This document shows positions 9,557 through 61,147 of a DNA stretch of 64,000 bases, piece by piece (the stretch's first letter is position 1; every line of letters begins with the position of its first letter). Location of the stretch: the sequence record OR757453.1. One strand, written 5' to 3'. Both the position numbers and the translations under genes were made by a program. The notes under the pieces are model-generated. The model saw only the letters and a list, made by a program, of their open reading frames with translations. It had not been told where the DNA came from and did no database searches. This DNA is from Escherichia phage BYEP01.

Positions 9557-9643
9557 GCGAGAATGGTCAAATTGGTAAAGGCACAGCACTTAAAATGCTG
9601 CGGAATGATTTCCTTGTGGGTTCGAGTCCCACTTCTCGTACCA
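9557..9643 (+). tRNA. tRNA-Leu (anticodon UAA), long variable arm, CCA encoded
   Basis: Manual cloverleaf: acceptor gcgagaa/ttctcgt, anticodon stem cagca/tgctg, loop cttaaaa. Confidence 0.8.
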
Positions 9644-9649
9644 AAGTTT

Positions 9650-9721
<72 letters not shown>

Positions 9722-9733
9722 AAATTTAATTTA

Positions 9734-9807
9734 CTCCGTGTAGCTCAGTTTGGTAGAGCGTCTGCTTTGGGAGCAGAATGTCGCAGGTTCAAATCCTGCC
9801 GCGGAGA
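9734..9807 (+). tRNA. tRNA-Pro (anticodon UGG)
   Basis: Acceptor ctccgtg/cgcggag; anticodon loop tttggga; T-loop ttcaaat. Confidence 0.8.
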
Positions 9808-9809
9808 CT

Positions 9810-9896
9810 GGAGGCGTGGCAGAGTGGTTTAATGCACCGGTCTTGAAAACCGGCAGTCGCTCCGGCGACTCATAGGTTCAAATCCTATCGCCTCCG
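9810..9896 (+). tRNA. tRNA-Ser (anticodon UGA), long variable arm
   Basis: Acceptor ggaggcg/cgcctcc; anticodon loop cttgaaa. Confidence 0.8.
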
Positions 9897-9903
9897 TAAT
9901 TTC

Positions 9904-9976
9904 GCTGATTTAGCTCAGTAGGTAGAGCACCTCACTTGTAATGAGGATGTCGGCGGTTCGATTCCGTCAATCAGCA
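9904..9976 (+). tRNA. tRNA-Thr (anticodon UGU)
   Basis: Acceptor gctgatt/aatcagc; anticodon loop cttgtaa. Confidence 0.8.
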
Positions 9977-9982
9977 TATCAA

Positions 9983-10054
9983 GGCCCTGTAGCTGGAAGG
10001 TTCAAGCAAGCGACTCATAATCGCCAGATGGTGGTTCAATTCCACCCAGGGCCA
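9983..10054 (+). tRNA. tRNA-Ile (anticodon CAU, presumably modified to read AUA)
   Basis: Acceptor ggccctg/cagggcc; anticodon loop ctcataa with 4-bp stem. Confidence 0.7.
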
Positions 10055-10095
10055 TATTTTGAGAACATAAATACTCTTAGAAATAGGAGATATTT

Positions 10096-10761
10096 ATGTT
10101 CCATTACATTTATAAAATAACAAATAAAATTAATAATAAAATCTATATAGGCGCTCATTCTACCGAAAATTTAGATGATGGATATATGGGTTCTGGTAAA
10201 TTATTAAAAAGAGCCCAAGATAAGTATGGTATAGAAAATTTTTCTAAAGAAATATTAGAGTTCTTTGACGATAAAACCTCTATGTTTGAGTCAGAAAAGA
10301 ATATTGTGACTGAAGAGTTTTTAAAACGCCCTGATGTTTATAATTTGAAATTAGGTGGTGAAGGTGGTTGGGACCATTTAAACACTAAAGAATATTTGGA
10401 TAAAAAGAAAGAAGCTTCCTTAAAAGGAGCTGCCGCTTTTAAAACCAGATTTGAGAACGACCCAGACCTTAAAGAAAAATATCGTAAAATGGGTTCAGAA
10501 AGGTTTAAACAGCTTTGGGATAATCCTAAGTATAGAGAGAAATTTTTAAATACTAAATCTTTCTTGGGTAAGACCCATACTCCTGAAACTATTAATAAAA
10601 TGAAAGAAATTCACGCTAAAAATAATCACCAGAAAGGAGAAAAGAATTCCCAATTTGGTATGATGTGGATTCATTCATTAGATGAAAAAGTTTCTAAACG
10701 TATTAAGAAAACTGACCCAATTCCAGAAGGATGGTTTAAAGGTCGAAAAATGAAATTTTAA
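10096..10761 (+). CDS. segB: GIY-YIG homing endonuclease SegB (221 aa) inside tRNA cluster
   Basis: GIY-YIG motif YIYKITNKINNKIYIGAHS; NUMOD-like repeats; between tRNA-Ile and tRNA-Arg as in T4. Confidence 0.85.
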   Translation: MFHYIYKITNKINNKIYIGAHSTENLDDGYMGSGKLLKRAQDKYGIENFSKEILEFFDDKTSMFESEKNIVTEEFLKRPDVYNLKLGGEGGWDHLNTKEYLDKKKEASLKGAAAFKTRFENDPDLKEKYRKMGSERFKQLWDNPKYREKFLNTKSFLGKTHTPETINKMKEIHAKNNHQKGEKNSQFGMMWIHSLDEKVSKRIKKTDPIPEGWFKGRKMKF

Positions 10762-10764
10762 TTA

Positions 10765-10841
10765 CGGGGCATAGCTCAATTGTATAGAGCAACGGATTTC
10801 TAATCCGTTGGTTGAAGGTTAGAATCCTTCTGCCTCGACCA
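10765..10841 (+). tRNA. tRNA-Arg (anticodon UCU), CCA encoded
   Basis: Anticodon stem acgga/tccgt, loop tttctaa; acceptor cggggca/tgcctcg. Confidence 0.75.
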
Positions 10842-24497: not shown

Positions 24498-25277
24498 ATG
24501 AATTATACTAAAGTATATAATAATTTAATTAAGAAAGGAAAACTCAGAAAATTAGATAAATCTAAATTAAATTTTTATACGGAAAAGCATCATATTATTC
24601 CATCTTGTATTGGTGGTAATGATGATTCTGATAATTTAGTTTTATTAACAGCTAGAGAGCATTTTATAGCCCATTGGCTTTTAGCTAAAATTCATTATAA
24701 TTCGCCTGGATTAATTTATGCATGGTGGTCATTTTATAATTTTGGAGAAGATTCTTTAGGAAGAAATCTCAAATTAACTTCAAGAGGATATCAGTTAGTT
24801 AGAGAAAAATTTTCAAAAATACATTCTAATACAATGAAAGAAATGTGGAAGTCTAATGAATACAGAGAAAAACGTTCGATAACATTAAGTCTTCCTGAAA
24901 TAAGGGCTAAAATTTCAGAATCCCAGTTAGAAGCACAAAACAAACCGGAAGTTAAAGAAAAAATATCTAAAGGGGTGAAAGCTGCTTTTAAACGACCGGG
25001 AGTTAAAGAAAAACACTCTGCTGCAGTCAAAAAATCTTTGAATAATTTTGAAACTAAAAAGAAACAATCAAATTCATCTAAAATTAGACAAAGAACTGGT
25101 AAACATTGGCAAGACTATGACTTACTTTATAAGTTATGGATTAAATTAAATAGACCTAAACGTGGGTCATTCGGAACTTATATAAGTAAATTAGGATATC
25201 CAAAATCTAATTATCATCGATTGATTGTACAATTTAATGAAGATTATGAAAGGTCTAATAATGAAAACTGTAGTTAA
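24498..25277 (+). CDS. HNH homing endonuclease (MobD-like) with NUMOD repeats
   Basis: EKHHIIPSCIGGNDDSDNLVLLTAREHFIAHW; repeated KPEVKEKISKG / RPGVKEKHSAA. Confidence 0.8.
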   Translation: MNYTKVYNNLIKKGKLRKLDKSKLNFYTEKHHIIPSCIGGNDDSDNLVLLTAREHFIAHWLLAKIHYNSPGLIYAWWSFYNFGEDSLGRNLKLTSRGYQLVREKFSKIHSNTMKEMWKSNEYREKRSITLSLPEIRAKISESQLEAQNKPEVKEKISKGVKAAFKRPGVKEKHSAAVKKSLNNFETKKKQSNSSKIRQRTGKHWQDYDLLYKLWIKLNRPKRGSFGTYISKLGYPKSNYHRLIVQFNEDYERSNNENCS

Positions 25278-35868: not shown

Positions 35869-37160
35869 CTGAATATAATGATGAAGTAAATACACTTTTC
35901 AGCTCTAATGGACAAACGCCTTTTGTAACAATTACGTTTGGTACGGGAACCGACTGGACTGAACGAATGATTCAGAAAGCAATTCTTAAAAACCGCATTA
36001 AAGGCCTTGGTCGTGATGGGATAACTCCTATTTTCCCTAAGCTTGTTATGTTCGTTGAAGAGGGTGTTAATCTTTATAAAGACGATCCGAACTATGATAT
36101 TAAGCAGCTTGCTTTAGAGTGCGCAAGCAAAAGGATGTATCCTGATATTATTTCAGCTAAGAACAATAAAGCTATCACGGGTTCATCTATTCCTGTTTCT
36201 CCAATGGGTTGTCGTAGTTTCTTGGGCGTATGGAAAGATTCCACTGGTAATGAAATTCTTGATGGACGTAATAATCTTGGCGTTGTAACACTGAATCTTC
36301 CTCGTATTGCGTTAGATTCTTATATTGGAACACAGTTCAATGAACAGAAATTTGCCGAATTGTTCAATGAACGAATGGATTTATGTTTTGAAGCTTTGAT
36401 GTGTAGAATTAGTTCCTTAAAAGGAGTTAAAGCGACTGTTGCTCCTATTCTTTATCAAGAAGGTGCATTCGGGGTTCGTCTTAAACCTGATGACGATATA
36501 ATTGAGTTATTTAAAAACGGTAGAAGTTCAGTGTCCCTAGGATACATTGGTATTCACGAATTGAATATTCTTGTCGGTCGTGATATTGGACAAGAAATTT
36601 TAACTAAAATGAATGCTCGTCTTAAGCAGTGGACTGAAAGAACCGGTTTTGCTTTTAGTTTGTATTCTACTCCTGCTGAAAACCTGTGCTATCGCTTCTG
36701 TAAACTTGATACCGAAAAATATGGAAGTGTAAAAGATGTTACCGATAAAGGCTGGTACACTAACAGTTTCCACGTTTCAGTAGAAGAAAATATTACTCCG
36801 TTTGAAAAGATTTCTCGCGAAGCCCCGTATCATTTCATTGCGACAGGTGGTCACATTTCTTATGTTGAACTTCCTGATATGAAAAATAACTTAAAAGGCC
36901 TTGAGGCCATATGGGATTATGCTGCACAACATTTAGATTATTTTGGTGTTAACATGCCGGTAGATAAATGTTTTACATGCGGAAGTACCCATGAAATGAC
37001 TCCTACTGAAAACGGATTTGTTTGTTCTATTTGTGGAGAAACTGATCCTAAAAAGATGAACACAATAAGAAGAACATGCGGATATCTTGGAACTCCTAGC
37101 GTTGTTCCATGGAATTTAGGTAAAATGAAAGAAATGGTAAAACGAGTAAAACATGCATAG
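35869..37160 (+). CDS. nrdD: anaerobic ribonucleotide reductase NrdD, exon 2 (5-prime junction approximate)
   Basis: NTLFSSNGQTPF aligns to remembered E. coli NrdD NSMHSRGGQVPF; C-terminal glycyl radical region and Zn site CFTCG...CSICG; exon1+exon2 about 600 aa. Confidence 0.7.
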
Positions 37161-37983
37161 GTATTATATAATTTATAAAATAACAAATATAATTAATTCA
37201 AAGGAATATATCGGTGCGCATAGCACCGATAACATAAATGACGGTTATATGGGGTCAGGAACATTGATTCGTGCCGCTTTATTAAAATATGGTAGAAAAA
37301 ATTTTAATAAAGAAATTTTACATGTTTTTGATAATGAAAAACAAATGTATGATAAAGAAGCTGAACTTGTAACCGAAGAGTATTGTCTAAAAGAAAATAC
37401 ATATAATATTAAACCTGGTGGAAAAGGTGGAACTGCCTATGAACAGACACTTGAACATCGCCGCAAAAATAGTTTAGCAAATAAAGGTAAAAAGAGAACA
37501 GAAGAAACTAAAATAGCTATTTCACGTGCTTTAAAGAAATATAAACGTACGCCAGCGCATCAAGCAAATTTAAATAAAGCCGTAAGCATAGCTATGAAGC
37601 GAAAAGATGTTAGAAGTAAATTAGCTGGAGAGCGGTCTGAGAAAGATAAATTATCTATATCAAACGGTGTTAAAAAATATTACAATTCTTTGAGTGAAGA
37701 AGAACGCGAACTTCATCGCAAGCGAATTATTGAAGGTAAAAAGAATTCTCCCATGTCATTGGAATCTAGACAAAAGCTTTCAAAAGCTTTAAAAGGACTT
37801 CAAGTTGGTTCAAAAAATCCAATGTATGGAAAAATTTCTCCAACTAGCAAAACCGTTTCAGTTGACGGTATTAAATATGATTCAATTAAAAAGTGCTCAA
37901 ATGCCATAAAAGTTTCTAGACATCTTATACTAAAACGCTGTAATTCTACTGATGAAGCTTGGAAAAATTGGATATTATTATGA
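37153..37983 (+). CDS. GIY-YIG homing endonuclease (Seg-like, 276 aa)
   Basis: YIIYKITNIINSKEYIGAHS; overlaps nrdD stop by 8 nt and nrdG start by ATGA. Confidence 0.8.
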   Translation: MHRYYIIYKITNIINSKEYIGAHSTDNINDGYMGSGTLIRAALLKYGRKNFNKEILHVFDNEKQMYDKEAELVTEEYCLKENTYNIKPGGKGGTAYEQTLEHRRKNSLANKGKKRTEETKIAISRALKKYKRTPAHQANLNKAVSIAMKRKDVRSKLAGERSEKDKLSISNGVKKYYNSLSEEERELHRKRIIEGKKNSPMSLESRQKLSKALKGLQVGSKNPMYGKISPTSKTVSVDGIKYDSIKKCSNAIKVSRHLILKRCNSTDEAWKNWILL

Positions 37984-45635: not shown

Positions 45636-46486
45636 AGAATTTTAAACTTGATATTAATGATGAATTTTTAATAAAGGAATTAGTTGAAAAATTAGTGTTG
45701 AGCGAAGAAGACGCCAAGTCTTACATTAATTTTATTTCTATGAATTCAACTGTTAAAACTCCAGGTAAAACGGAAGCACATCACGTGCTTCCTAAATCAA
45801 TATTTCCTGAATATTTAAAATCTACATGGAATTTAGTTAATTTAAGTCATTTCAATCATTTCAAAGCACATTTCTTATTAGCAAAAGGTAAAAATGGAAA
45901 AATGCTAAATGCTTTAAATAGAATGATGTCAGGAAAAACATATAAAAATTTATCTTTAGCCGAAGTTGATTTAATAGCTGCTGAATATAGTTTTATAAAA
46001 CAAGATGTAAGTGACACAATATCAAAAAGGCTTCAACAGTATTATTCAAATCCGCAAAATAGAAATGCTGCTAGAGAAAGGGCATTAAAATATTTTTCAG
46101 TAGCAAAAAATAGAAAAGATAACAAAGAAAGATTAAATAATTTTAAAACAAAACAAAAAATTTCAATGGCTTCAAGGGAATGGTTTAATAACGAAGAAAA
46201 TAAAATTAAACACCAAAGGGCTGTTCGCGCTGCTTTATCAAAACCTGAATATAAAATAGCTATATCAAATTCAGTAGCTGCTAGTTGGAAAAATCCGGAG
46301 ATTAGAAAAGCTCATATAGCATCTCGACGAAAAGGCTATCATTGGGATAATAAAGATAAATTGTATGAATTGTGGATATCATATAATCGTCCTAAACATG
46401 TGATGTTTAGGAAAATGTTAGTTAAGAATGGATATCCAATAGAGGCTTCATTACAGGCTTTAGTTAAAGAATTTTCTTCATTGTGA
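45632..46486 (+). CDS. HNH homing endonuclease (Mob-like), GTG start
   Basis: EAHHVLPKS...NLVNLSHFNHFKAHF; NUMOD-like repeats. Confidence 0.8.
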   Translation: MKNFKLDINDEFLIKELVEKLVLSEEDAKSYINFISMNSTVKTPGKTEAHHVLPKSIFPEYLKSTWNLVNLSHFNHFKAHFLLAKGKNGKMLNALNRMMSGKTYKNLSLAEVDLIAAEYSFIKQDVSDTISKRLQQYYSNPQNRNAARERALKYFSVAKNRKDNKERLNNFKTKQKISMASREWFNNEENKIKHQRAVRAALSKPEYKIAISNSVAASWKNPEIRKAHIASRRKGYHWDNKDKLYELWISYNRPKHVMFRKMLVKNGYPIEASLQALVKEFSSL

Positions 46487-55264: not shown

Positions 55265-56005
55265 ATGATTAATGACTCTATGACAGTTGAAGAAATCCGT
55301 CTTCATTTGGGAATTGCATTAAAGGAAAAAGATTTCGTAGTTGATAAAACTGGTGTTAAAACTATTGAAATTATTGGCGCATCATTTGTAGCAGATGAAC
55401 CGTTTATTTTTGGCGCTCTTAATGATGAATACATTCAGCGTGAACTTGAATGGTATAAATCTAAAAGCTTGTTTGTTAAAGATATTCCAGGTGAAACACC
55501 GAAGATTTGGCAACAAGTAGCATCTTCTAAAGGCGAAATTAACTCGAATTATGGTTGGGCTATCTGGTCAGAAGATAACTATGCCCAGTATGATATGTGT
55601 TTAGCTGAACTTGGTCAAAATCCTGATTCTCGACGTGGTATCATGATTTATACTCGTCCATCCATGCAGTTTGACTACAATAAAGATGGTATGTCAGATT
55701 TCATGTGTACGAATACAGTACAGTACCTGATTCGTGATAAGAAAGTCAATGCAGTTGTTAATATGAGAAGCAATGACTGCTGGGCAGGCTATCGTAATGA
55801 TTATGCATGGCAAAAATACGTACTAGATAAATTAGTATCTGATTTGAATGCAGGCGACCCATCGCGGCAATATAAAGCAGGTTCTATTATATGGAACGTT
55901 GGAAGTCTCCATGTGTACGAAAATCAGTTTTATTTAGTTGACCATTGGTGGAAAACTGGCGAAACTCATATTGCGAAAAAAGATTATAATGGTGAGTGGA
56001 AATGA
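55265..56005 (+). CDS. 42: dCMP hydroxymethylase gp42 (246 aa)
   Basis: Thymidylate-synthase-like; full-length similarity to remembered T4 gp42. Confidence 0.9.
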   Translation: MINDSMTVEEIRLHLGIALKEKDFVVDKTGVKTIEIIGASFVADEPFIFGALNDEYIQRELEWYKSKSLFVKDIPGETPKIWQQVASSKGEINSNYGWAIWSEDNYAQYDMCLAELGQNPDSRRGIMIYTRPSMQFDYNKDGMSDFMCTNTVQYLIRDKKVNAVVNMRSNDCWAGYRNDYAWQKYVLDKLVSDLNAGDPSRQYKAGSIIWNVGSLHVYENQFYLVDHWWKTGETHIAKKDYNGEWK

Positions 56006-56844
56006 TTCAATTCGTAATTCCAAGCTATCAACGCGTAGGGGCAGTTTCTGCCCTTGATATGTTTCCATCTGATTATGAACCTCATATTGTAGTACGTAAA
56101 CACGAAGAAAAAGCTTATTATGACGCTTATGGGTCTAGAGCTAAAATTATAACTATTCCTGATGATGTCAATGGAATTGCTGGTACTCGTAAAGCAATTA
56201 CTGATATGTATGCAGGTCAACGAATCTGGATGATTGATGATGATACTACTATTCGTATGAGTTCAATGCGAAAGAAAGATGATCGTCGCTGCGTAGATAA
56301 AATTAATCAATTAACCCGTGAACAGTTCTATGAATTGATTCAATACGTTGAAGATGCCATGGATTGCGGGTATTATCATGGTCATGCTCGTCTACCTATT
56401 TTTAAAATTACTTCATCTTGGGGTAATTATCGTGAAAATTCATATGGATTCACAAATACATGGTATGACCTTGGAAAACTTACAACAGAACAAATTGGGT
56501 ATGGAAAAATTGATTTATGCGAAGATATGTATGCATTTCTCAATTTAATTAATCAAGGTTATCCGCATTTGGCCTTGTTCAAATATCTGGTTGTATCCGG
56601 AAAAGCACAAGCTCCTGGCGGATGTAGTTCAATTCGTAGTAATTCAAAACATAATAGAGCGCTCGAGCAAATCAATAGAGAGTTTCCAGAGCAAGCTCGT
56701 TGGAAAACTTCTAATATTGAAAAGAGAAAATCATTGGGTGAAGAAGACGAGCCATTAAAGGTTCTTCGCATGTGTGTTTCACGTAAAGAAAAATCAGAAG
56801 CGTTTCATAAGTTTAATGCTATTCATCCAATAGCAGTTGATTAA
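56002..56844 (+). CDS. putative glycosyltransferase in the beta-gt position (T2/T6-type beta-alpha-gt?)
   Basis: Not T4 beta-gt; DxD-like IWMIDDDT; location between 42 and uvsX. Confidence 0.45.
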   Translation: MIQFVIPSYQRVGAVSALDMFPSDYEPHIVVRKHEEKAYYDAYGSRAKIITIPDDVNGIAGTRKAITDMYAGQRIWMIDDDTTIRMSSMRKKDDRRCVDKINQLTREQFYELIQYVEDAMDCGYYHGHARLPIFKITSSWGNYRENSYGFTNTWYDLGKLTTEQIGYGKIDLCEDMYAFLNLINQGYPHLALFKYLVVSGKAQAPGGCSSIRSNSKHNRALEQINREFPEQARWKTSNIEKRKSLGEEDEPLKVLRMCVSRKEKSEAFHKFNAIHPIAVD

Positions 56845-56921
56845 TGCCTAAATTTATTGTGTTATAATTACCCTATCTTTAACCAGTGAGGAAAATATAA
56901 TGATGCCTATGGAAAAAATGA

Positions 56922-57851
56922 ATGTCTATTGCAGATTTAAAATCCCGTTTGATTAAAGCTTCCACTTCTAAAATGACTGCTGAACTGACTACATCTAAAT
57001 TCTTTAATGAAAAGGATGTAATTCGTACAAAAATCCCAATGCTTAATATCGCTATTTCTGGCGCGATTGATGGTGGTATGCAGTCTGGTTTAACCATTTT
57101 TGCAGGTCCTTCTAAACACTTTAAATCAAATATGTCTTTGACTATGGTTGCGGCGTATTTGAACAAATATCCTGACGCGGTTTGTCTATTTTATGATAGC
57201 GAATTTGGTATTACTCCAGCTTATTTGCGGTCCATGGGAGTTGACCCTGAACGAGTAATTCATACGCCAATTCAGTCAGTTGAACAACTGAAAATTGATA
57301 TGGTGAATCAGCTTGAAGCTATTGAGCGTGGTGAAAAAGTTATTGTATTCATCGACTCAATCGGTAATATGGCTTCTAAGAAAGAAACGGAAGATGCCTT
57401 GAATGAAAAATCTGTGGCAGATATGACTCGTGCTAAATCACTGAAGTCATTATTCCGTATTGTTACTCCTTATTTTAGCATTAAAAATATTCCATGTGTT
57501 GCGGTTAACCATACAATTGAAACAATTGAAATGTTTAGTAAAACCGTGATGACAGGTGGTTGTGTTATTGCTGGTACTAAAATCCAGATGTCCGATGGTT
57601 CTACTAAAGCAGTTGAAGATATTCGTCCAGGTGAGCGTGTTAAAACCATGGTCGGTGATAATGAAGTAACTTATGTTTGGGACCCCGAAACTCTGGCTGA
57701 AGGTACTCCTGAATGTTTCGAAATTGAATTCGAAGACGGTTATAAAGTAACTACTTCAGATACTCACAAGTTCCTGGTAATGGTTAAAGACATTCCAACT
57801 TGGGTTGAAGCTAAAGATTTAGTAGCTGGAATGGATTGTGTTGTAAGGTAA
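56922..57851 (+). CDS. uvsX: UvsX recombinase N-terminal extein (213 aa) fused to N-terminal split-intein half (96 aa)
   Basis: RecA-like sequence to MFSKTVMTGG, then Cys-initiated Hint block (CVIAGTKIQMSDGS...TTSDTHKFLV) ending in stop. Confidence 0.85.
   Translation: MSIADLKSRLIKASTSKMTAELTTSKFFNEKDVIRTKIPMLNIAISGAIDGGMQSGLTIFAGPSKHFKSNMSLTMVAAYLNKYPDAVCLFYDSEFGITPAYLRSMGVDPERVIHTPIQSVEQLKIDMVNQLEAIERGEKVIVFIDSIGNMASKKETEDALNEKSVADMTRAKSLKSLFRIVTPYFSIKNIPCVAVNHTIETIEMFSKTVMTGGCVIAGTKIQMSDGSTKAVEDIRPGERVKTMVGDNEVTYVWDPETLAEGTPECFEIEFEDGYKVTTSDTHKFLVMVKDIPTWVEAKDLVAGMDCVVR
57561..57848 (+). mobile_element. split intein, N-terminal half (IntN)
   Basis: Starts with Cys at extein junction; Hint blocks A/B. 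Confidence 0.7.
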
Positions 57852-57855
57852 TAAA

Positions 57856-57896
57856 TATGGGTACCGGACTAATGTATATTTTTGAGGTACCCATAT
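57856..57896 (+). promoter_or_regulatory. 11-bp perfect inverted repeat sequestering SD and start codon of endonuclease gene
   Basis: atatgggtacc ... ggtacccatat; ATG 57895 begins inside 3-prime arm; near-consensus late promoter AATAAATA just upstream. Confidence 0.5.
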
Positions 57897-58617
57897 GAAT
57901 TTTGTCTATAAAATTGTGTTCAACGATAGAATTAAAAACGGCACTCCGCCATATTACTACATAGGGAGCAAGACAAATGCTTCTTATGTAGATGGTAAGA
58001 TTATTGACGCCCACGGTCGTGAGTACTATGGCTCATCGAGATATCCCGGATATCATGATTTTATCAATAATGTTACTGTTGAAATATTGGAGCAATATGA
58101 TGATATTAAACACACTAAACTGCTAGAGCGCGAAAATTTCTATCAGAAACAAGTAAATGTTAAAACAAATCCAGATTATTTTAATTTAGATTATGCTTGT
58201 GGGCATAATTCATATGCTAATGCTGATTTTGCATCATACAAGCATTATATAACAGGTAAATGTATTCGTCTTGAAAGAAACCATCCGCTTGTTAAATCTG
58301 GTGTGTATGTTGGCGTCACAAAAGGCGTGAAATCTTCTGATGAACACCGTAAGCACATATCAGAAGGTATTACCGGAGAAAACAATGGGTTCTATGGTAA
58401 GAAACACACTAAAGAAACAATTAATAAAATATCAGAAAAAGCAAAGAAAAGATTAAAGCATTCCCATCCTAGACAAAAAGGTGTTATCATAAACGGTATT
58501 GAATACCGGGGCGTCAGACCTGCTGCAAGAGCGTTGGGAATTAATCCTAACACAATTATCAACAAAATTAAAGCTAATATAAAAGGATGGGCTTATGCAG
58601 TAGATGCACGCGGTTAA
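57895..58617 (+). CDS. free-standing GIY-YIG-like homing endonuclease between the two uvsX halves
   Basis: FVYKIVFNDRIKNGTPPYYYIGSK motif; NUMOD-like NNGFYGKKHTKETINKISE; C-terminal HTH-like. Confidence 0.75.
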   Translation: MNFVYKIVFNDRIKNGTPPYYYIGSKTNASYVDGKIIDAHGREYYGSSRYPGYHDFINNVTVEILEQYDDIKHTKLLERENFYQKQVNVKTNPDYFNLDYACGHNSYANADFASYKHYITGKCIRLERNHPLVKSGVYVGVTKGVKSSDEHRKHISEGITGENNGFYGKKHTKETINKISEKAKKRLKHSHPRQKGVIINGIEYRGVRPAARALGINPNTIINKIKANIKGWAYAVDARG

Positions 58618-58725
58618 GGCATTCGAAGATATGGTAAAAGAATTTGGAATGAACATGACAATCAAGATTATGCTTTCATGAAATATGTATATTGAAACTA
58701 GCTACTACGAAACACAAGGTAAAGT

Positions 58726-59373
58726 ATGAAAATTAAATCTGTTAAATCTGTTGGTAAAAAAGAAGTCTATGATTTGTCTGTTGCTGACGTCGAGCATTAT
58801 GTTTTAGAAAATGGTATCGTTACACACAACACAGGCGTAATGTATTCGGCTGATACTGTATTCATTATCGGTAAACGTCAGATTAAAGATGGTTCTGATC
58901 TTCAGGGGTATCAATTTGTTCTAAATGTAGAAAAATCTCGTACCGTTAAAGAAAAAAGTAAATTCTTTATTGATGTTAAATTTGACGGTGGTATCGATCC
59001 TTATTCTGGATTATTAGATATGGCTCTTGAATTAGGATTTGTGGTAAAACCTAAAAATGGCTGGTATGCTCGTGAATTTCTTGACGAAGAAACCGGCGAG
59101 ATGATTCGCGAAGAAAAATCTTGGCGTGCAAAAGATACCAATTGCACTACATTCTGGGGTCCTTTATTTAAGCATCAACCATTCCGAGATGCTATTAAAC
59201 GCGCTTATCAGTTAGGTGCTATTGATAGTAATGAAATTGTTGAAGCTGAAGTTGATGAATTAATTAACTCAAAGGTTGAAAAATTTAAATCTCCAGAAAG
59301 TAAAAGTAAATCAGCAGCTGATTTAGAAACTGACCTAGATCAGTTAAGTGATATGGAAGAATTTAATGAATAA
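58726..59373 (+). CDS. uvsX: C-terminal split-intein half (35 aa) fused to UvsX C-terminal extein (180 aa)
   Basis: MKIKSVKSVGKKEVYDLSVADVEHYVLENGIVTHN then TGVMYSADTVFIIGKRQ... matching UvsX C-terminus. Confidence 0.85.
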   Translation: MKIKSVKSVGKKEVYDLSVADVEHYVLENGIVTHNTGVMYSADTVFIIGKRQIKDGSDLQGYQFVLNVEKSRTVKEKSKFFIDVKFDGGIDPYSGLLDMALELGFVVKPKNGWYAREFLDEETGEMIREEKSWRAKDTNCTTFWGPLFKHQPFRDAIKRAYQLGAIDSNEIVEAEVDELINSKVEKFKSPESKSKSAADLETDLDQLSDMEEFNE

Positions 59374-59710
59374 AAATGATTTAGATTTAGATTTAGAAAT
59401 TATCGACGAATCCCCCTCTTCGGAGGGGGAAGAAGAAAGAAAAGAACGTCTTTTTAATGAATCTCTTAAGATAATTAAATCTGCCATGGAAAATGTTATC
59501 CAGGAGATTGTCATTAAACTAGAAGACGGTTCTACACACATTGTGTATGTGACAAAATTAGATTGGGTTGATGGAAAAGTCGTAATGGACTTTGCTGTTC
59601 TTGACCAAGAAAGAAAAGCTGAGTTAGCTCCTCATGTAGAAAAATGTATTACAATGCAACTACAAGATGCATTTAATAAAAGGTCAAAGAAAAAATTTAA
59701 ATTCTTTTAA
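59366..59710 (+). CDS. 40: gp40-like protein (114 aa)
   Basis: Position between uvsX and 41. Confidence 0.55.
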   Translation: MNKNDLDLDLEIIDESPSSEGEEERKERLFNESLKIIKSAMENVIQEIVIKLEDGSTHIVYVTKLDWVDGKVVMDFAVLDQERKAELAPHVEKCITMQLQDAFNKRSKKKFKFF

Positions 59711-59719
59711 GGAGTAAGT

Positions 59720-61147
59720 GTGGTAGAAATTATTCTTTCTCATCTCATATTTGATCAAGCTTATTTTTCAAAAGTTTGGCCATATATGGATTCAGAATAT
59801 TTTGAAAGTGGTCCAGCTAAAAATACATTCAAATTAATTAAATCTCATGTTAATGAGTACCATAGCGTTCCATCCATTAATGCGTTAAATGTTGCATTAG
59901 AAAATAGTTCATTTACTGAAACAGAATATTCTGGTGTAAAAACACTTATTTCAAAACTAACCGATTCTCCGGAAGACCACAGCTGGTTAGTAAAAGAAAC
60001 AGAAAAATATGTTCAGCAAAGGGCGATGTTTAATGCTACGTCTAAAATAATTGAAATTCAAACTAATGCTGAGCTTCCTCCGGAAAAACGAAATAAGAAA
60101 ATGCCAGATGTAGGTGCTATTCCTGACATCATGCGCCAAGCATTATCAATTTCATTTGATAGCTACGTTGGTCATGATTGGATGGATGACTACGAAGCAC
60201 GTTGGCTATCTTATATGAATAAAGCTCGTAAGGTTCCATTTAAACTCAAAATTCTAAATAAAATTACTAAAGGCGGAGCTGAAACTGGAACACTGAACGT
60301 TTTAATGGCTGGTGTTAACGTTGGTAAGTCATTAGGTCTGTGTTCATTGGCAGCAGATTATTTACAGCTCGGTCATAATGTTCTTTACATTTCAATGGAA
60401 ATGGCAGAAGAAGTCTGTGCTAAGCGTATTGACGCTAATATGCTTGATGTTTCTCTTGATGACATTGATGATGGGCATATTTCTTACGCTGAGTATAAAG
60501 GAAAAATGGAAAAATGGCGTGAGAAATCTACTCTCGGCCGTTTAATCGTTAAACAGTATCCTACTGGTGGAGCAGACGCTAATACATTTCGGTCGCTTTT
60601 AAATGAATTAAAGCTCAAGAAGAATTTTGTTCCAACAATCATTATTGTTGACTATCTGGGTATTTGTAAATCTTGCCGCATCAGAGTTTATTCAGAAAAT
60701 AGTTACACAACTGTTAAAGCTATCGCAGAGGAATTGCGTGCTCTGGCTGTTGAAACCGAAACTGTTCTTTGGACTGCAGCACAGGTTGGTAAACAAGCTT
60801 GGGACTCTTCCGATGTTAACATGAGCGATATTGCAGAATCTGCTGGTCTTCCAGCGACAGCTGATTTTATGCTTGCGGTCATTGAAACCGAGGAGCTAGC
60901 AGCTGCTGAACAGCAACTCATTAAGCAAATCAAATCACGATACGGTGATAAGAATAAATGGAATAAGTTTTTGATGGGTGTTCAAAAAGGAAATCAGAAA
61001 TGGGTAGAAATTGAACAAGATTCTACTCCAACTGAAGTGAGTGAAGTAGCAGGTTCACAGCAGATTCAGGCTGAGCAGAATCGCTATCAAAGAAACGAAT
61101 CGACTCGAGCTCAGTTAGATGCTTTGGCGAATGAATTAAAATTTTAG
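59720..61147 (+). CDS. 41: replicative DNA helicase gp41 (475 aa), GTG start
   Basis: DnaB-like Walker A GVNVGKS; full-length match to remembered T4 gp41. Confidence 0.93.
   Translation: MVEIILSHLIFDQAYFSKVWPYMDSEYFESGPAKNTFKLIKSHVNEYHSVPSINALNVALENSSFTETEYSGVKTLISKLTDSPEDHSWLVKETEKYVQQRAMFNATSKIIEIQTNAELPPEKRNKKMPDVGAIPDIMRQALSISFDSYVGHDWMDDYEARWLSYMNKARKVPFKLKILNKITKGGAETGTLNVLMAGVNVGKSLGLCSLAADYLQLGHNVLYISMEMAEEVCAKRIDANMLDVSLDDIDDGHISYAEYKGKMEKWREKSTLGRLIVKQYPTGGADANTFRSLLNELKLKKNFVPTIIIVDYLGICKSCRIRVYSENSYTTVKAIAEELRALAVETETVLWTAAQVGKQAWDSSDVNMSDIAESAGLPATADFMLAVIETEELAAAEQQLIKQIKSRYGDKNKWNKFLMGVQKGNQKWVEIEQDSTPTEVSEVAGSQQIQAEQNRYQRNESTRAQLDALANELKF

Follow-up and report, generated by a model that had tools for sequence, protein, structure and literature searches.

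Escherichia phage BYEP01 carries its RecA-like recombinase gene uvsX in two pieces with a third gene between them, which raises the question of how an intact UvsX could be made from this locus and what the intervening gene contributes. The window analysed here is a stretch of 64,000 nt from this phage (record OR757453.1), and coordinates are positions of that whole stretch unless another contig is named. The answer that we consider very probable is that uvsX has been invaded by a mobile cassette: a class-1 mini-intein, naturally split, with a free-standing GIY-YIG endonuclease gene at the split point. The three open reading frames (ORFs) sit between the glucosyltransferase gene and gene 40, and the features of the locus are as follows.

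56922..57560 (+): uvsX N-extein, codons 1-213 ending ...TVMTGG; identical to residues 1-213 of HY01 UvsX; Pfam RecA 9e-09; matches the T4 UvsX structure 3io5
57561..57851 (+): predicted N-terminal intein half (IntN), 96 codons from Cys1, block B T-S-D-T-H, TAA stop at 57849-57851, net charge -9; profile TIGR01445
57850..57857 (+): late-promoter-like box AATAAATA, matching 7 of 8 letters of the T4 TATAAATA; read from the sequence
57855..57896 (+): predicted RNA hairpin, 11-bp perfect stem and 20-nt loop; centroid fold
57895..58617 (+): predicted free-standing homing endonuclease, 240 aa; SegG similarity, NUMOD3, I-TevI fold matches
57895-58203 (+): putative GIY-YIG catalytic domain, aa ~1-103; 46% identity to the T4 SegG catalytic domain, E 1e-27
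58330-58434 (+): NUMOD3, aa 146-180; 3.3e-10
58501-58572 (+): putative helix-turn-helix, NUMOD1-like, aa 203-226
58618..58725 (+): spacer, 108 nt, with the IntC gene's own Shine-Dalgarno (SD) sequence AAGG at 58716-58719; read from the sequence
58726..58830 (+): predicted C-terminal intein half (IntC), 35 codons, MKIKSVKSVGKKEVYDLSVADVEHYVLENGIVTHN, with blocks F and G, terminal His-Asn and a basic N-terminal strand (+4); profile TIGR01443
58831..59373 (+): uvsX C-extein, codons 214-393 from Thr+1 (TGVMYSAD...) and stop; identical to HY01 UvsX 214-393; Pfam T4_UVSX_C 1.9e-39

The three plus-strand ORFs occupy 56922-57851 (309 aa), 57895-58617 (240 aa) and 58726-59373 (215 aa), and several in-frame stops keep them apart. 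The initial annotation had described a first gene with UvsX up to ...MFSKTVMTGG followed by a 96-aa, Cys-initiated half and a stop, and a second gene about 870 bp downstream, in which a 35-aa half ending in ...VTHN is followed by TGVMYSADTVFIIGK... to the UvsX C-terminus. Both descriptions are correct: UvsX residues 1-213 precede the first half, the second gene starts 874 bp past the first stop, and its half ends in ...IVTHN. The further claim that the joined exteins give a contiguous UvsX is borne out as well: at 393 of 393 residues they agree with Escherichia phage HY01, whose UvsX is uninterrupted, and the T4 UvsX crystal structure 3io5 aligns to them without a break across the junction.

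Alignment to the uninterrupted HY01 uvsX delimits a cassette of 1270 bp at 57561-58830, which splits the gene between Gly213 and Thr214, and the DNA flanking it (30 nt checked on each side) is the same as HY01 uvsX DNA. The cassette is a precise in-frame interruption whose removal restores the whole of UvsX, and this agreement at the level of sequence is far beyond chance. In E. coli RecA the break aligns to a conserved segment, falling between the GG of ...ETTTGG and the following NALKFY, at what we take to be the end of the DNA-binding loop L2. A tryptic peptide spanning the joined junction is predicted to be TVMTGGTGVMYSADTVFIIGK.

The two stretches that flank the endonuclease gene belong to the intein family. 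When fused, they give 25.5 bits with the NCBIfam model TIGR01445 intein_Nterm (cut-off 24.5) and 27.6 bits with TIGR01443 intein_Cterm (cut-off 15.6), placing both above the curated cut-offs, and the Pfam models Hint, Vint and Intein_splicing find sub-threshold matches on each ORF bearing a half. Among sequences in the PDB, the fused halves match the Npu DnaE intein 2keq (1.4e-5, residues 47-131) and the gp41-1 intein 6qaz (3e-4, residues 6-131), and matches by sequence or fold also include the structures of the Pho RadA and Mtu RecA inteins. The top two entries of the PDB sequence search, Tako8, were rejected as a repeat-protein artefact. The split point is canonical, because the isolated Npu DnaE IntC chains 4qfq_B and 4lx3_B align end to end with the 35-residue IntC. 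The fold was modelled on P0001, a contiguous metagenomic homologue with 54% identity, by AlphaFold2 (AF2; predicted local distance difference test, pLDDT, 85-94 over the core). The best Foldseek match of this model is the gp41-1 intein (E 4e-8), and the top 50 are all inteins or HINT domains, which points to gp41-1 as the best structural match of the uvsX intein family; the two have the SxxH form of block B in common.

In a comparison of 16 sequences, namely the window and 15 phages, every one has Cys1, the block B His in (S/T/C)xxH, block F, Thr+1 and the terminal HN, and the catalytic residues conserved in inteins are thus invariant in the halves. The +1 residue is Thr in the window (...THN followed by T) and Ser in the metagenomic locus L009. 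In all carriers the net charge of IntN is -8 to -14, and that of the first 13 residues of IntC is +3 to +6. The halves are translated and under purifying selection, because the ratio of non-synonymous to synonymous substitution rates (dN/dS) of the intein is 0.02-0.15 across carriers; in phage RPN226, for instance, the intein differs from that of the window by 12 synonymous changes and one non-synonymous change. Moreover, intein identity to the window equals or exceeds extein identity in 12 of the 15 carriers, such as Pm5461 (84% vs 76%) and VmeM-32 (67% vs 54%). At the sequence level, the identification of the flanking halves as a naturally split class-1 mini-intein is well supported.

The middle ORF is, by similarity, a GIY-YIG homing endonuclease joined to a modular DNA-binding domain. 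Similarity to the DNA-binding domain of I-TevI (1i3j, E 2e-4) covers its residues 159-234, and NCBIfam TIGR01453, a model of group I intron endonucleases, gives 53.9 bits on the 240-aa ORF, below its cut-off of 56.05. In alignment with homologues, E80 is invariant (ERENFY, cf. ERENFW in I-TevI), Y5, Y22, I23, G24 and N97 almost so, and R49 lines up with the Arg in two PF01541-bearing GIY-YIG proteins, P0048 and P0050. The ORF of the window is full length and holds every GIY-YIG catalytic residue. Its AF2 model (pLDDT 86.9) has I-TevI domains as the top three Foldseek matches in the PDB, including the DNA-binding domain 1i3j (probability 1.00) and the catalytic domain 1ln0 (probability 0.97, TM 0.63), with weak E-values of 1e-3 to 0.1. 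The GIY-YIG-like endonuclease with NUMOD repeats of the initial annotation is therefore retained in its first part, through the SegG identity, the catalytic residues and the I-TevI folds, and corrected in its second, since one NUMOD3 and a NUMOD1-like helix-turn-helix are found rather than several repeats.

This arrangement is not unique to BYEP01. By megablast, it is present as a whole in 8 of 772 matching records (~1%), which represent six phages, SYGD1, SP21535, pSe_SNUABM_01 (pSe01), ELT1, HY03 and RPN226; the other 764 records lack the cassette, and those listed align over the uvsX flanks only, as expected of an uninterrupted uvsX. A tblastn search with IntN found 18 distinct carrier phages, whose hosts beyond those six include Klebsiella, Salmonella, Enterobacter, Proteus, Shewanella, Pseudomonas, Yersinia and Vibrio. 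The order of N-half, endonuclease and C-half was verified in 15 phages, distributed over Tequatrovirus, Gelderlandvirus, Karamvirus, Bragavirus, Jiangsuvirus, Tegunavirus, subfamily Emmerichvirinae and unclassified Straboviridae, that is, at least six genera. An assembly artefact, which the initial annotation had named as a danger, is excluded because independent genomes share the same architecture. The three exact proteins of the window are present in NCBI (12-23 contigs each), and cassette sequences have been in GenBank since 2015. The uvsX fragments are labelled inconsistently there, as 'DNA repair protein' and 'recombinase', 'uvsX_1' and 'uvsX_2' or 'hypothetical protein', with the C-half of SYGD1 called 'portal protein', while the VmeM-32 record marks a 'HintC' domain on the C-half; PHROGs keeps the two fragments as separate families, phrog_8337 and phrog_18112.

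The cassette has spread horizontally. It is 100% identical between the window and SYGD1 and 99.9% identical in SP21535, in which the differences are confined to the endonuclease gene, and the endonuclease protein is 100% identical in all three. Four of the six Tequatrovirus carriers share a cassette at 99-100% identity, with flanking uvsX differing by up to 10%. In HY03 it is 97-99% identical to the window, and both IntN and IntC show 98-99% identity in HY03, ELT1 and pSe01. For the uvsX N-extein, by comparison, most carriers reach 97-99%, but HY03 no more than 89.7%; there, few differences fall within ~300 nt of the cassette and many lie past 320 nt, a pattern that looks like a co-conversion tract. 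Stronger conservation of a cassette than of its surroundings is a hallmark of homing, and the sequence comparison suggests that this one is probably still mobile.

It could be argued that the cassette is instead a vertically inherited relic, in which the intein splices, the endonuclease of the window is inactive or domesticated, and homing has ceased. Endonuclease decay does occur beside intact intein halves: in TG1 (L019 2845-3799) a frameshift has divided the endonuclease gene into a catalytic ORF of 133 aa and a DNA-binding ORF of 201 aa, and in VmeM-32 (L005 3263-3812) a truncated ORF of 140 aa is left, with a remnant of 89 aa that bears the zinc finger. Also, the endonuclease is far more divergent across genera (26-68% identity) than the intein. 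However, the intact ORF and catalytic residues of the window, the identical protein in window, SYGD1 and SP21535, the excess conservation of the cassette over its flanks and the HY03 tract all speak against a relic, and carriage in about 1% of records fits an element that is still spreading or cycling. We therefore regard the relic as unlikely, and TG1 and VmeM-32 fit the cycle usual for such endonucleases, in which decay follows invasion.

Regulation of the endonuclease gene might depend on the RNA structure at its start. An exact 11-bp inverted repeat lies at 57855-57865 (ATATGGGTACC) and 57886-57896 (GGTACCCATAT), with a centroid energy of -16.9 kcal/mol. Its pairing is kept through a compensatory double change, from GGGTACC/GGTACCC to GGATACC/GGTATCC, in RPN226, Lion_ER11 and UFV01, and through a second one in Pm5461, whose hairpin has AGATACC/GGTATCT. 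The box AATAAATA overlaps the first bases of the 5' arm, and the same position reads NATAAATA in RPN226, Lion_ER11 and UFV01; TG1 and PspYZU05 have different hairpins, each enclosing a perfect TATAAATA. Control by a hairpin plus a late promoter has been documented for I-TevI, segB and mobE (PMC2988022), and a hairpin stands at the start of 15 of the 16 endonucleases in the fractured genes known from metagenomes, ten of them with TATAAATA (PMC2677866). The AATAAATA box may function as a late promoter in the manner of I-TevI, segB and mobE.

Other transcription signals of the locus are sparse. No plus-strand terminator-like site lies between the three ORFs among those predicted in 55900-59800, and the 14 sigma-70-like promoters predicted in this interval show no excess over shuffled sequence (16.7). 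A weak candidate middle promoter is present in the spacer, with TATGCTTTC at 58669-58677 followed by TATATT at 58688-58693. The pattern TGCTTY-N(10-14)-TANNNT occurs 31 times in the whole window, about twofold the 14 +/- 3.7 of shuffled sequence, and one of these matches is in the spacer; elsewhere, patterns resembling the MotA box of middle promoters lie close upstream of ORF starts, e.g. 6484, 42742, 48199, 48829 and 55133. The spacer of 108 nt in the window is 142 nt in HY03, ELT1 and pSe01, the HY03 version finding no match outside carriers, and 38 nt in RPN226, which lacks the part holding the candidate promoter. In Lion_ER11, UFV01, SEA1, TG1 and EniLVp02, which belong to other genera, there is no spacer and the endonuclease stop overlaps the start of the IntC gene. 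The candidate spacer promoter is therefore not essential, since other genera do without it.

In the proposed mechanism, the three ORFs on the same strand would be co-transcribed, which is supported because no plus-strand terminator-like site separates them, and the two UvsX fragments would be translated separately, each from its own ribosome-binding site. The acidic IntN (-9) and the basic N-terminal strand of IntC (+4) would then associate and fold into one HINT domain, which would trans-splice through an acyl shift at Cys1, extein transfer to Thr+1, cyclisation of the terminal Asn and formation of a peptide bond. The product would be a scarless UvsX of 393 aa, the same as that of cassette-free relatives. 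The endonuclease is expected to remain silent on long early and middle transcripts, because the hairpin is proposed to occlude its SD sequence and AUG, and to be made late from transcripts starting in the 5' arm of the hairpin at the AATAAATA box. Transcripts starting there, a few bases past the box, would begin within the 5' arm and leave the ribosome-binding site accessible. During mixed infection, the endonuclease would presumably cut cassette-free uvsX, and recombinational repair would copy the cassette, together with some flanking uvsX, into the cut genome.

Several observations weigh against parts of this scheme. The initial annotation held that the ribosome-binding site and ATG are buried in an 11-bp perfect hairpin; the hairpin is indeed exact, but it does not cover the whole site, pairing only the GG of the GAGG SD sequence (57884-57887) and the AT of the ATG (57895-57897), and its z-score is only -1.9 in an 86-nt context. 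An exact TATAAATA was not found in the cassette, where the box matches at only seven of eight positions; all ten TATAAATA matches of the window lie elsewhere, in a number expected by chance, and an exact T4 late promoter within the cassette was accordingly rejected as a candidate. The Pfam GIY-YIG model has no match on the 240-aa ORF even at E up to 10, a silence that is uninformative because T4 SegG likewise gives none, and SegG is listed as an active GIY-YIG endonuclease in a review of T4 (PMC2988022). The P0001 model has low confidence over its last 17 residues, as its alignment lacked IntC sequences. In the window the two downstream genes are separated by the 108-nt spacer, whereas in most fractured genes the endonuclease stop overlaps the downstream start; this overlap is frequent among fractured genes rather than defining, and it is present in other carrier genera of the uvsX cassette. 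Finally, Thr at the +1 position is a less reactive nucleophile than Cys or Ser, and splicing could be slow or partial.

Would the cassette then require splicing at all? The UvsX fragments might be held together non-covalently, with the intein halves acting as an affinity clamp and no peptide bond being formed, as in Aeh1 NrdA. T4-like split genes working without splicing do exist, such as Aeh1 nrdA/mobE and a split gp43 (PMC2677866), and the charge complementarity of the halves would also serve plain association. Furthermore, conservation of Thr+1 alone is no proof of a role in splicing, because this residue belongs to the conserved GGTG motif of UvsX. However, Cys1 and the terminal His-Asn would be useless for association, yet they are invariant in all 16 sequences and in the metagenomic relatives, with strong purifying selection on the intein, and a 131-residue domain left in the region aligned to RecA L2 would probably disturb filament function. 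We consider a clamp to be very doubtful. Still less plausible is a uvsX pseudogene, inactivated by insertion of a mobile element in a phage that relies on host RecA. Although uvsX is missing from some Acinetobacter and Aeromonas phages (PMC4177764, PMC3037559), both exteins of the window are intact and together 100% identical to a UvsX of functional type, the architecture is kept in at least six genera, and the low dN/dS of the intein leads us to reject this explanation. An artefact of assembly or sequencing, a group I intron, or a contiguous intein with a frameshift can be dismissed with near certainty, for although 1270 bp is not a multiple of three and T4 has group I introns with GIY-YIG genes, the same layout recurs in genomes sequenced independently in several countries and hosts and in dozens of metagenomic contigs, a search of Rfam over 56800-59500 turned up neither a group I intron nor any other structured RNA at E up to 1, several in-frame stops lie between the ORFs, and curated profiles recognise the halves.

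Related loci indicate how a cassette of this kind, with its split intein, may vary. Shewanella phage Thanatos-1 carries an endonuclease in its uvsX intein gap (L004 3278-3931) with 52% full-length identity to T4 SegA (L023 4549-5386, minus strand; E 1e-70), and the same intein gap thus holds different endonuclease types depending on the phage. A T4-like uvsX in three pieces, with two split inteins, was found in three metagenomic contigs from three samples (L006 3346-6747, also L007 and L008; Logan SRR30164251, SRR30164232 and SRR30207033). In L006, piece 1 (296 aa) is the UvsX N-terminus ending ...NHTYQ plus the first IntN and is followed by an HNH endonuclease ORF of 256 aa; piece 2 (142 aa) consists of the first IntC, the 13-residue extein TQEMYSKTVVSGG and the second IntN, and is followed by an HNH/NUMOD3 ORF of 239 aa; piece 3 (190 aa) is the second IntC plus the UvsX C-terminus. 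The 13-residue extein in the middle is, in essence, the stretch that aligns with the L2 loop of RecA. Another metagenomic locus, L009 257-5486 (ENA ERZ15610583, a 35.8-kb contig; also L010), has two HNH-type ORFs of 554 and 500 aa between uvsX intein halves, with Ser at +1. Just downstream in L009, overlapping the end of the uvsX C-terminal gene in another frame, P0001 is a contiguous mini-intein ORF of 161 aa of the same family, with flanks of only 27 and 4 residues.

These loci admit a bolder view, which we put forward as a speculation with the odds against it: beyond being a tolerated parasite, the split intein could act as a switch, and over long periods as a 'safe harbour', where UvsX is most conserved. 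As a harbour, it may have had endonuclease families swapped in the same gap, which is SegG-like/I-TevI-like GIY-YIG in the window, SegA-like GIY-YIG in Thanatos-1 and HNH in L006 and L009. The extreme case may be the second split intein that some phages carry 13 codons upstream, where two trans-splicing reactions would be needed around a 13-residue, L2-aligned extein. If this view is true, UvsX activity would be gated by association of the fragments, and the timing of recombination would be tied to an element whose spread needs UvsX. The split intein could also shield uvsX from rival endonucleases that cut it, such as SegA; in T4, SegA adjoins and cuts uvsX (PMC2988022), and the window lacks segA upstream of uvsX. 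The situation is self-referential in any case, for the element interrupts the recombinase needed by double-strand-break repair and hence by homing (PMC2988022).

Further endonuclease genes are present in the window as separate observations. A SegA/SegB-like GIY-YIG gene at 10096-10761 (+) stands between tRNA-Met and tRNA-Arg in a cluster of seven tRNA genes (9557-10841; Leu, Gly, Pro, Ser, Thr, Met, Arg), parting the last from the rest. A second SegA-like GIY-YIG ORF lies at 37153-37983 (+), a Seg-like C-terminal match at ~46319-46480 (+), and an HNH ORF at 24498-25277 (+), the first 72-89 residues of which are 45-49% identical to the L006 HNH enzymes. No further inteins were found in the 64-kb window. 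Between gene 42 and the glucosyltransferase gene, HY03 (L011 304-945), RPN226, SYGD1 and ELT1 possess an extra homing-endonuclease ORF of 213 aa (phrog_314, 2e-31; distantly SegA-like), which is carried by four of the six Tequatrovirus carriers and is absent from the window (junction near 56005), SP21535 and pSe_SNUABM_01.

As for known systems, the Npu and Ssp DnaE inteins are likewise naturally split and of class 1, with an IntC of ~35-36 aa, Cys1, a terminal Asn and charge-driven association, but their halves are encoded at distant loci without an intervening endonuclease, the +1 residue is Cys, and the host is cellular, a cyanobacterium. Inteins in recombinases of the RecA family are also known, with 56 RecA and nine RadA inteins counted (PMC4760082). 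The Mtu RecA and Pho RadA inteins similarly occupy conserved core motifs, but those matched in the PDB are single contiguous chains, unlike the split uvsX intein. With respect to the endonuclease, T4 SegG shares 46% identity in the catalytic domain, I-TevI has a similar DNA-binding half (NUMOD3 and helix-turn-helix), and I-TevI and segB resemble the cassette in its proposed translational control by a hairpin plus late promoter; T4 Seg proteins are intergenic, however, I-TevI is intronic, and none lies within a split intein. In Aeh1 nrdA/mobE and the split gp43 of Aeromonas phage 25, an essential T4-like gene is also cut in two by a free-standing endonuclease, and mobE has a regulatory hairpin, but these genes have no intein halves and their products assemble non-covalently (PMC2677866, PMC3045599).

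The closest counterparts are the fractured genes of Dassa et al. 2009 (PMC2677866; gp41-1, gp41-8, NrdJ-1, IMPDH-1, NrdA-2), which share the layout of host N-part plus IntN, endonuclease, and IntC plus host C-part on one strand. They also share a split that falls in the canonical endonuclease-insertion loop, the opposite charges of the halves (PMC2677866), and a host gene of T4-like phage DNA metabolism. A hairpin just upstream of the endonuclease start is common to both, in theirs often with TATAAATA and in the window with the box that matches seven of its eight positions. By its layout, the BYEP01 uvsX locus is a fractured gene as defined there (PMC2677866), departing in one frequent feature, the stop/start overlap. 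The hosts reported for fractured genes are gp41, IMPDH, DnaE, NrdA, NrdJ, ligase and terminase, with UvsX only as the intact neighbour of a fractured gp41 (PMC2677866). The open-access literature yielded no account of inteins in connection with uvsX or the carrier phages, a description in a subscription journal being possible, and a 2024 paper states that inteins had yet to be reported from coliphages (PMC11162368), which is contradicted because the carrier genomes hold the uvsX split intein. The fractured-gene kind is thus known, and the host gene uvsX and the occurrence in cultured coliphages are new as far as the open-access literature goes.

Fractured genes were defined from ocean metagenome reads, which made testing in a native virus impossible until now, and here they occur in T4-like phages growing on E. 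coli K-12. T4, which lacks the cassette and has decades of uvsX genetics behind it, is a ready recipient. The yield of trans-splicing, the joint homing of endonuclease and split intein, the use of the hairpin and late promoter, and the origin and decay of split inteins all become addressable. For protein ligation, the cassette offers a compact natural split intein of 96 and 35 residues with Gly-Gly/Thr-Gly junctions and ~18 natural variants. Compared with the fractured genes described before, the +1 residue is Thr rather than Ser or Cys, the host is uvsX, and the carriers are cultured, genetically tractable phages instead of metagenomic reads.

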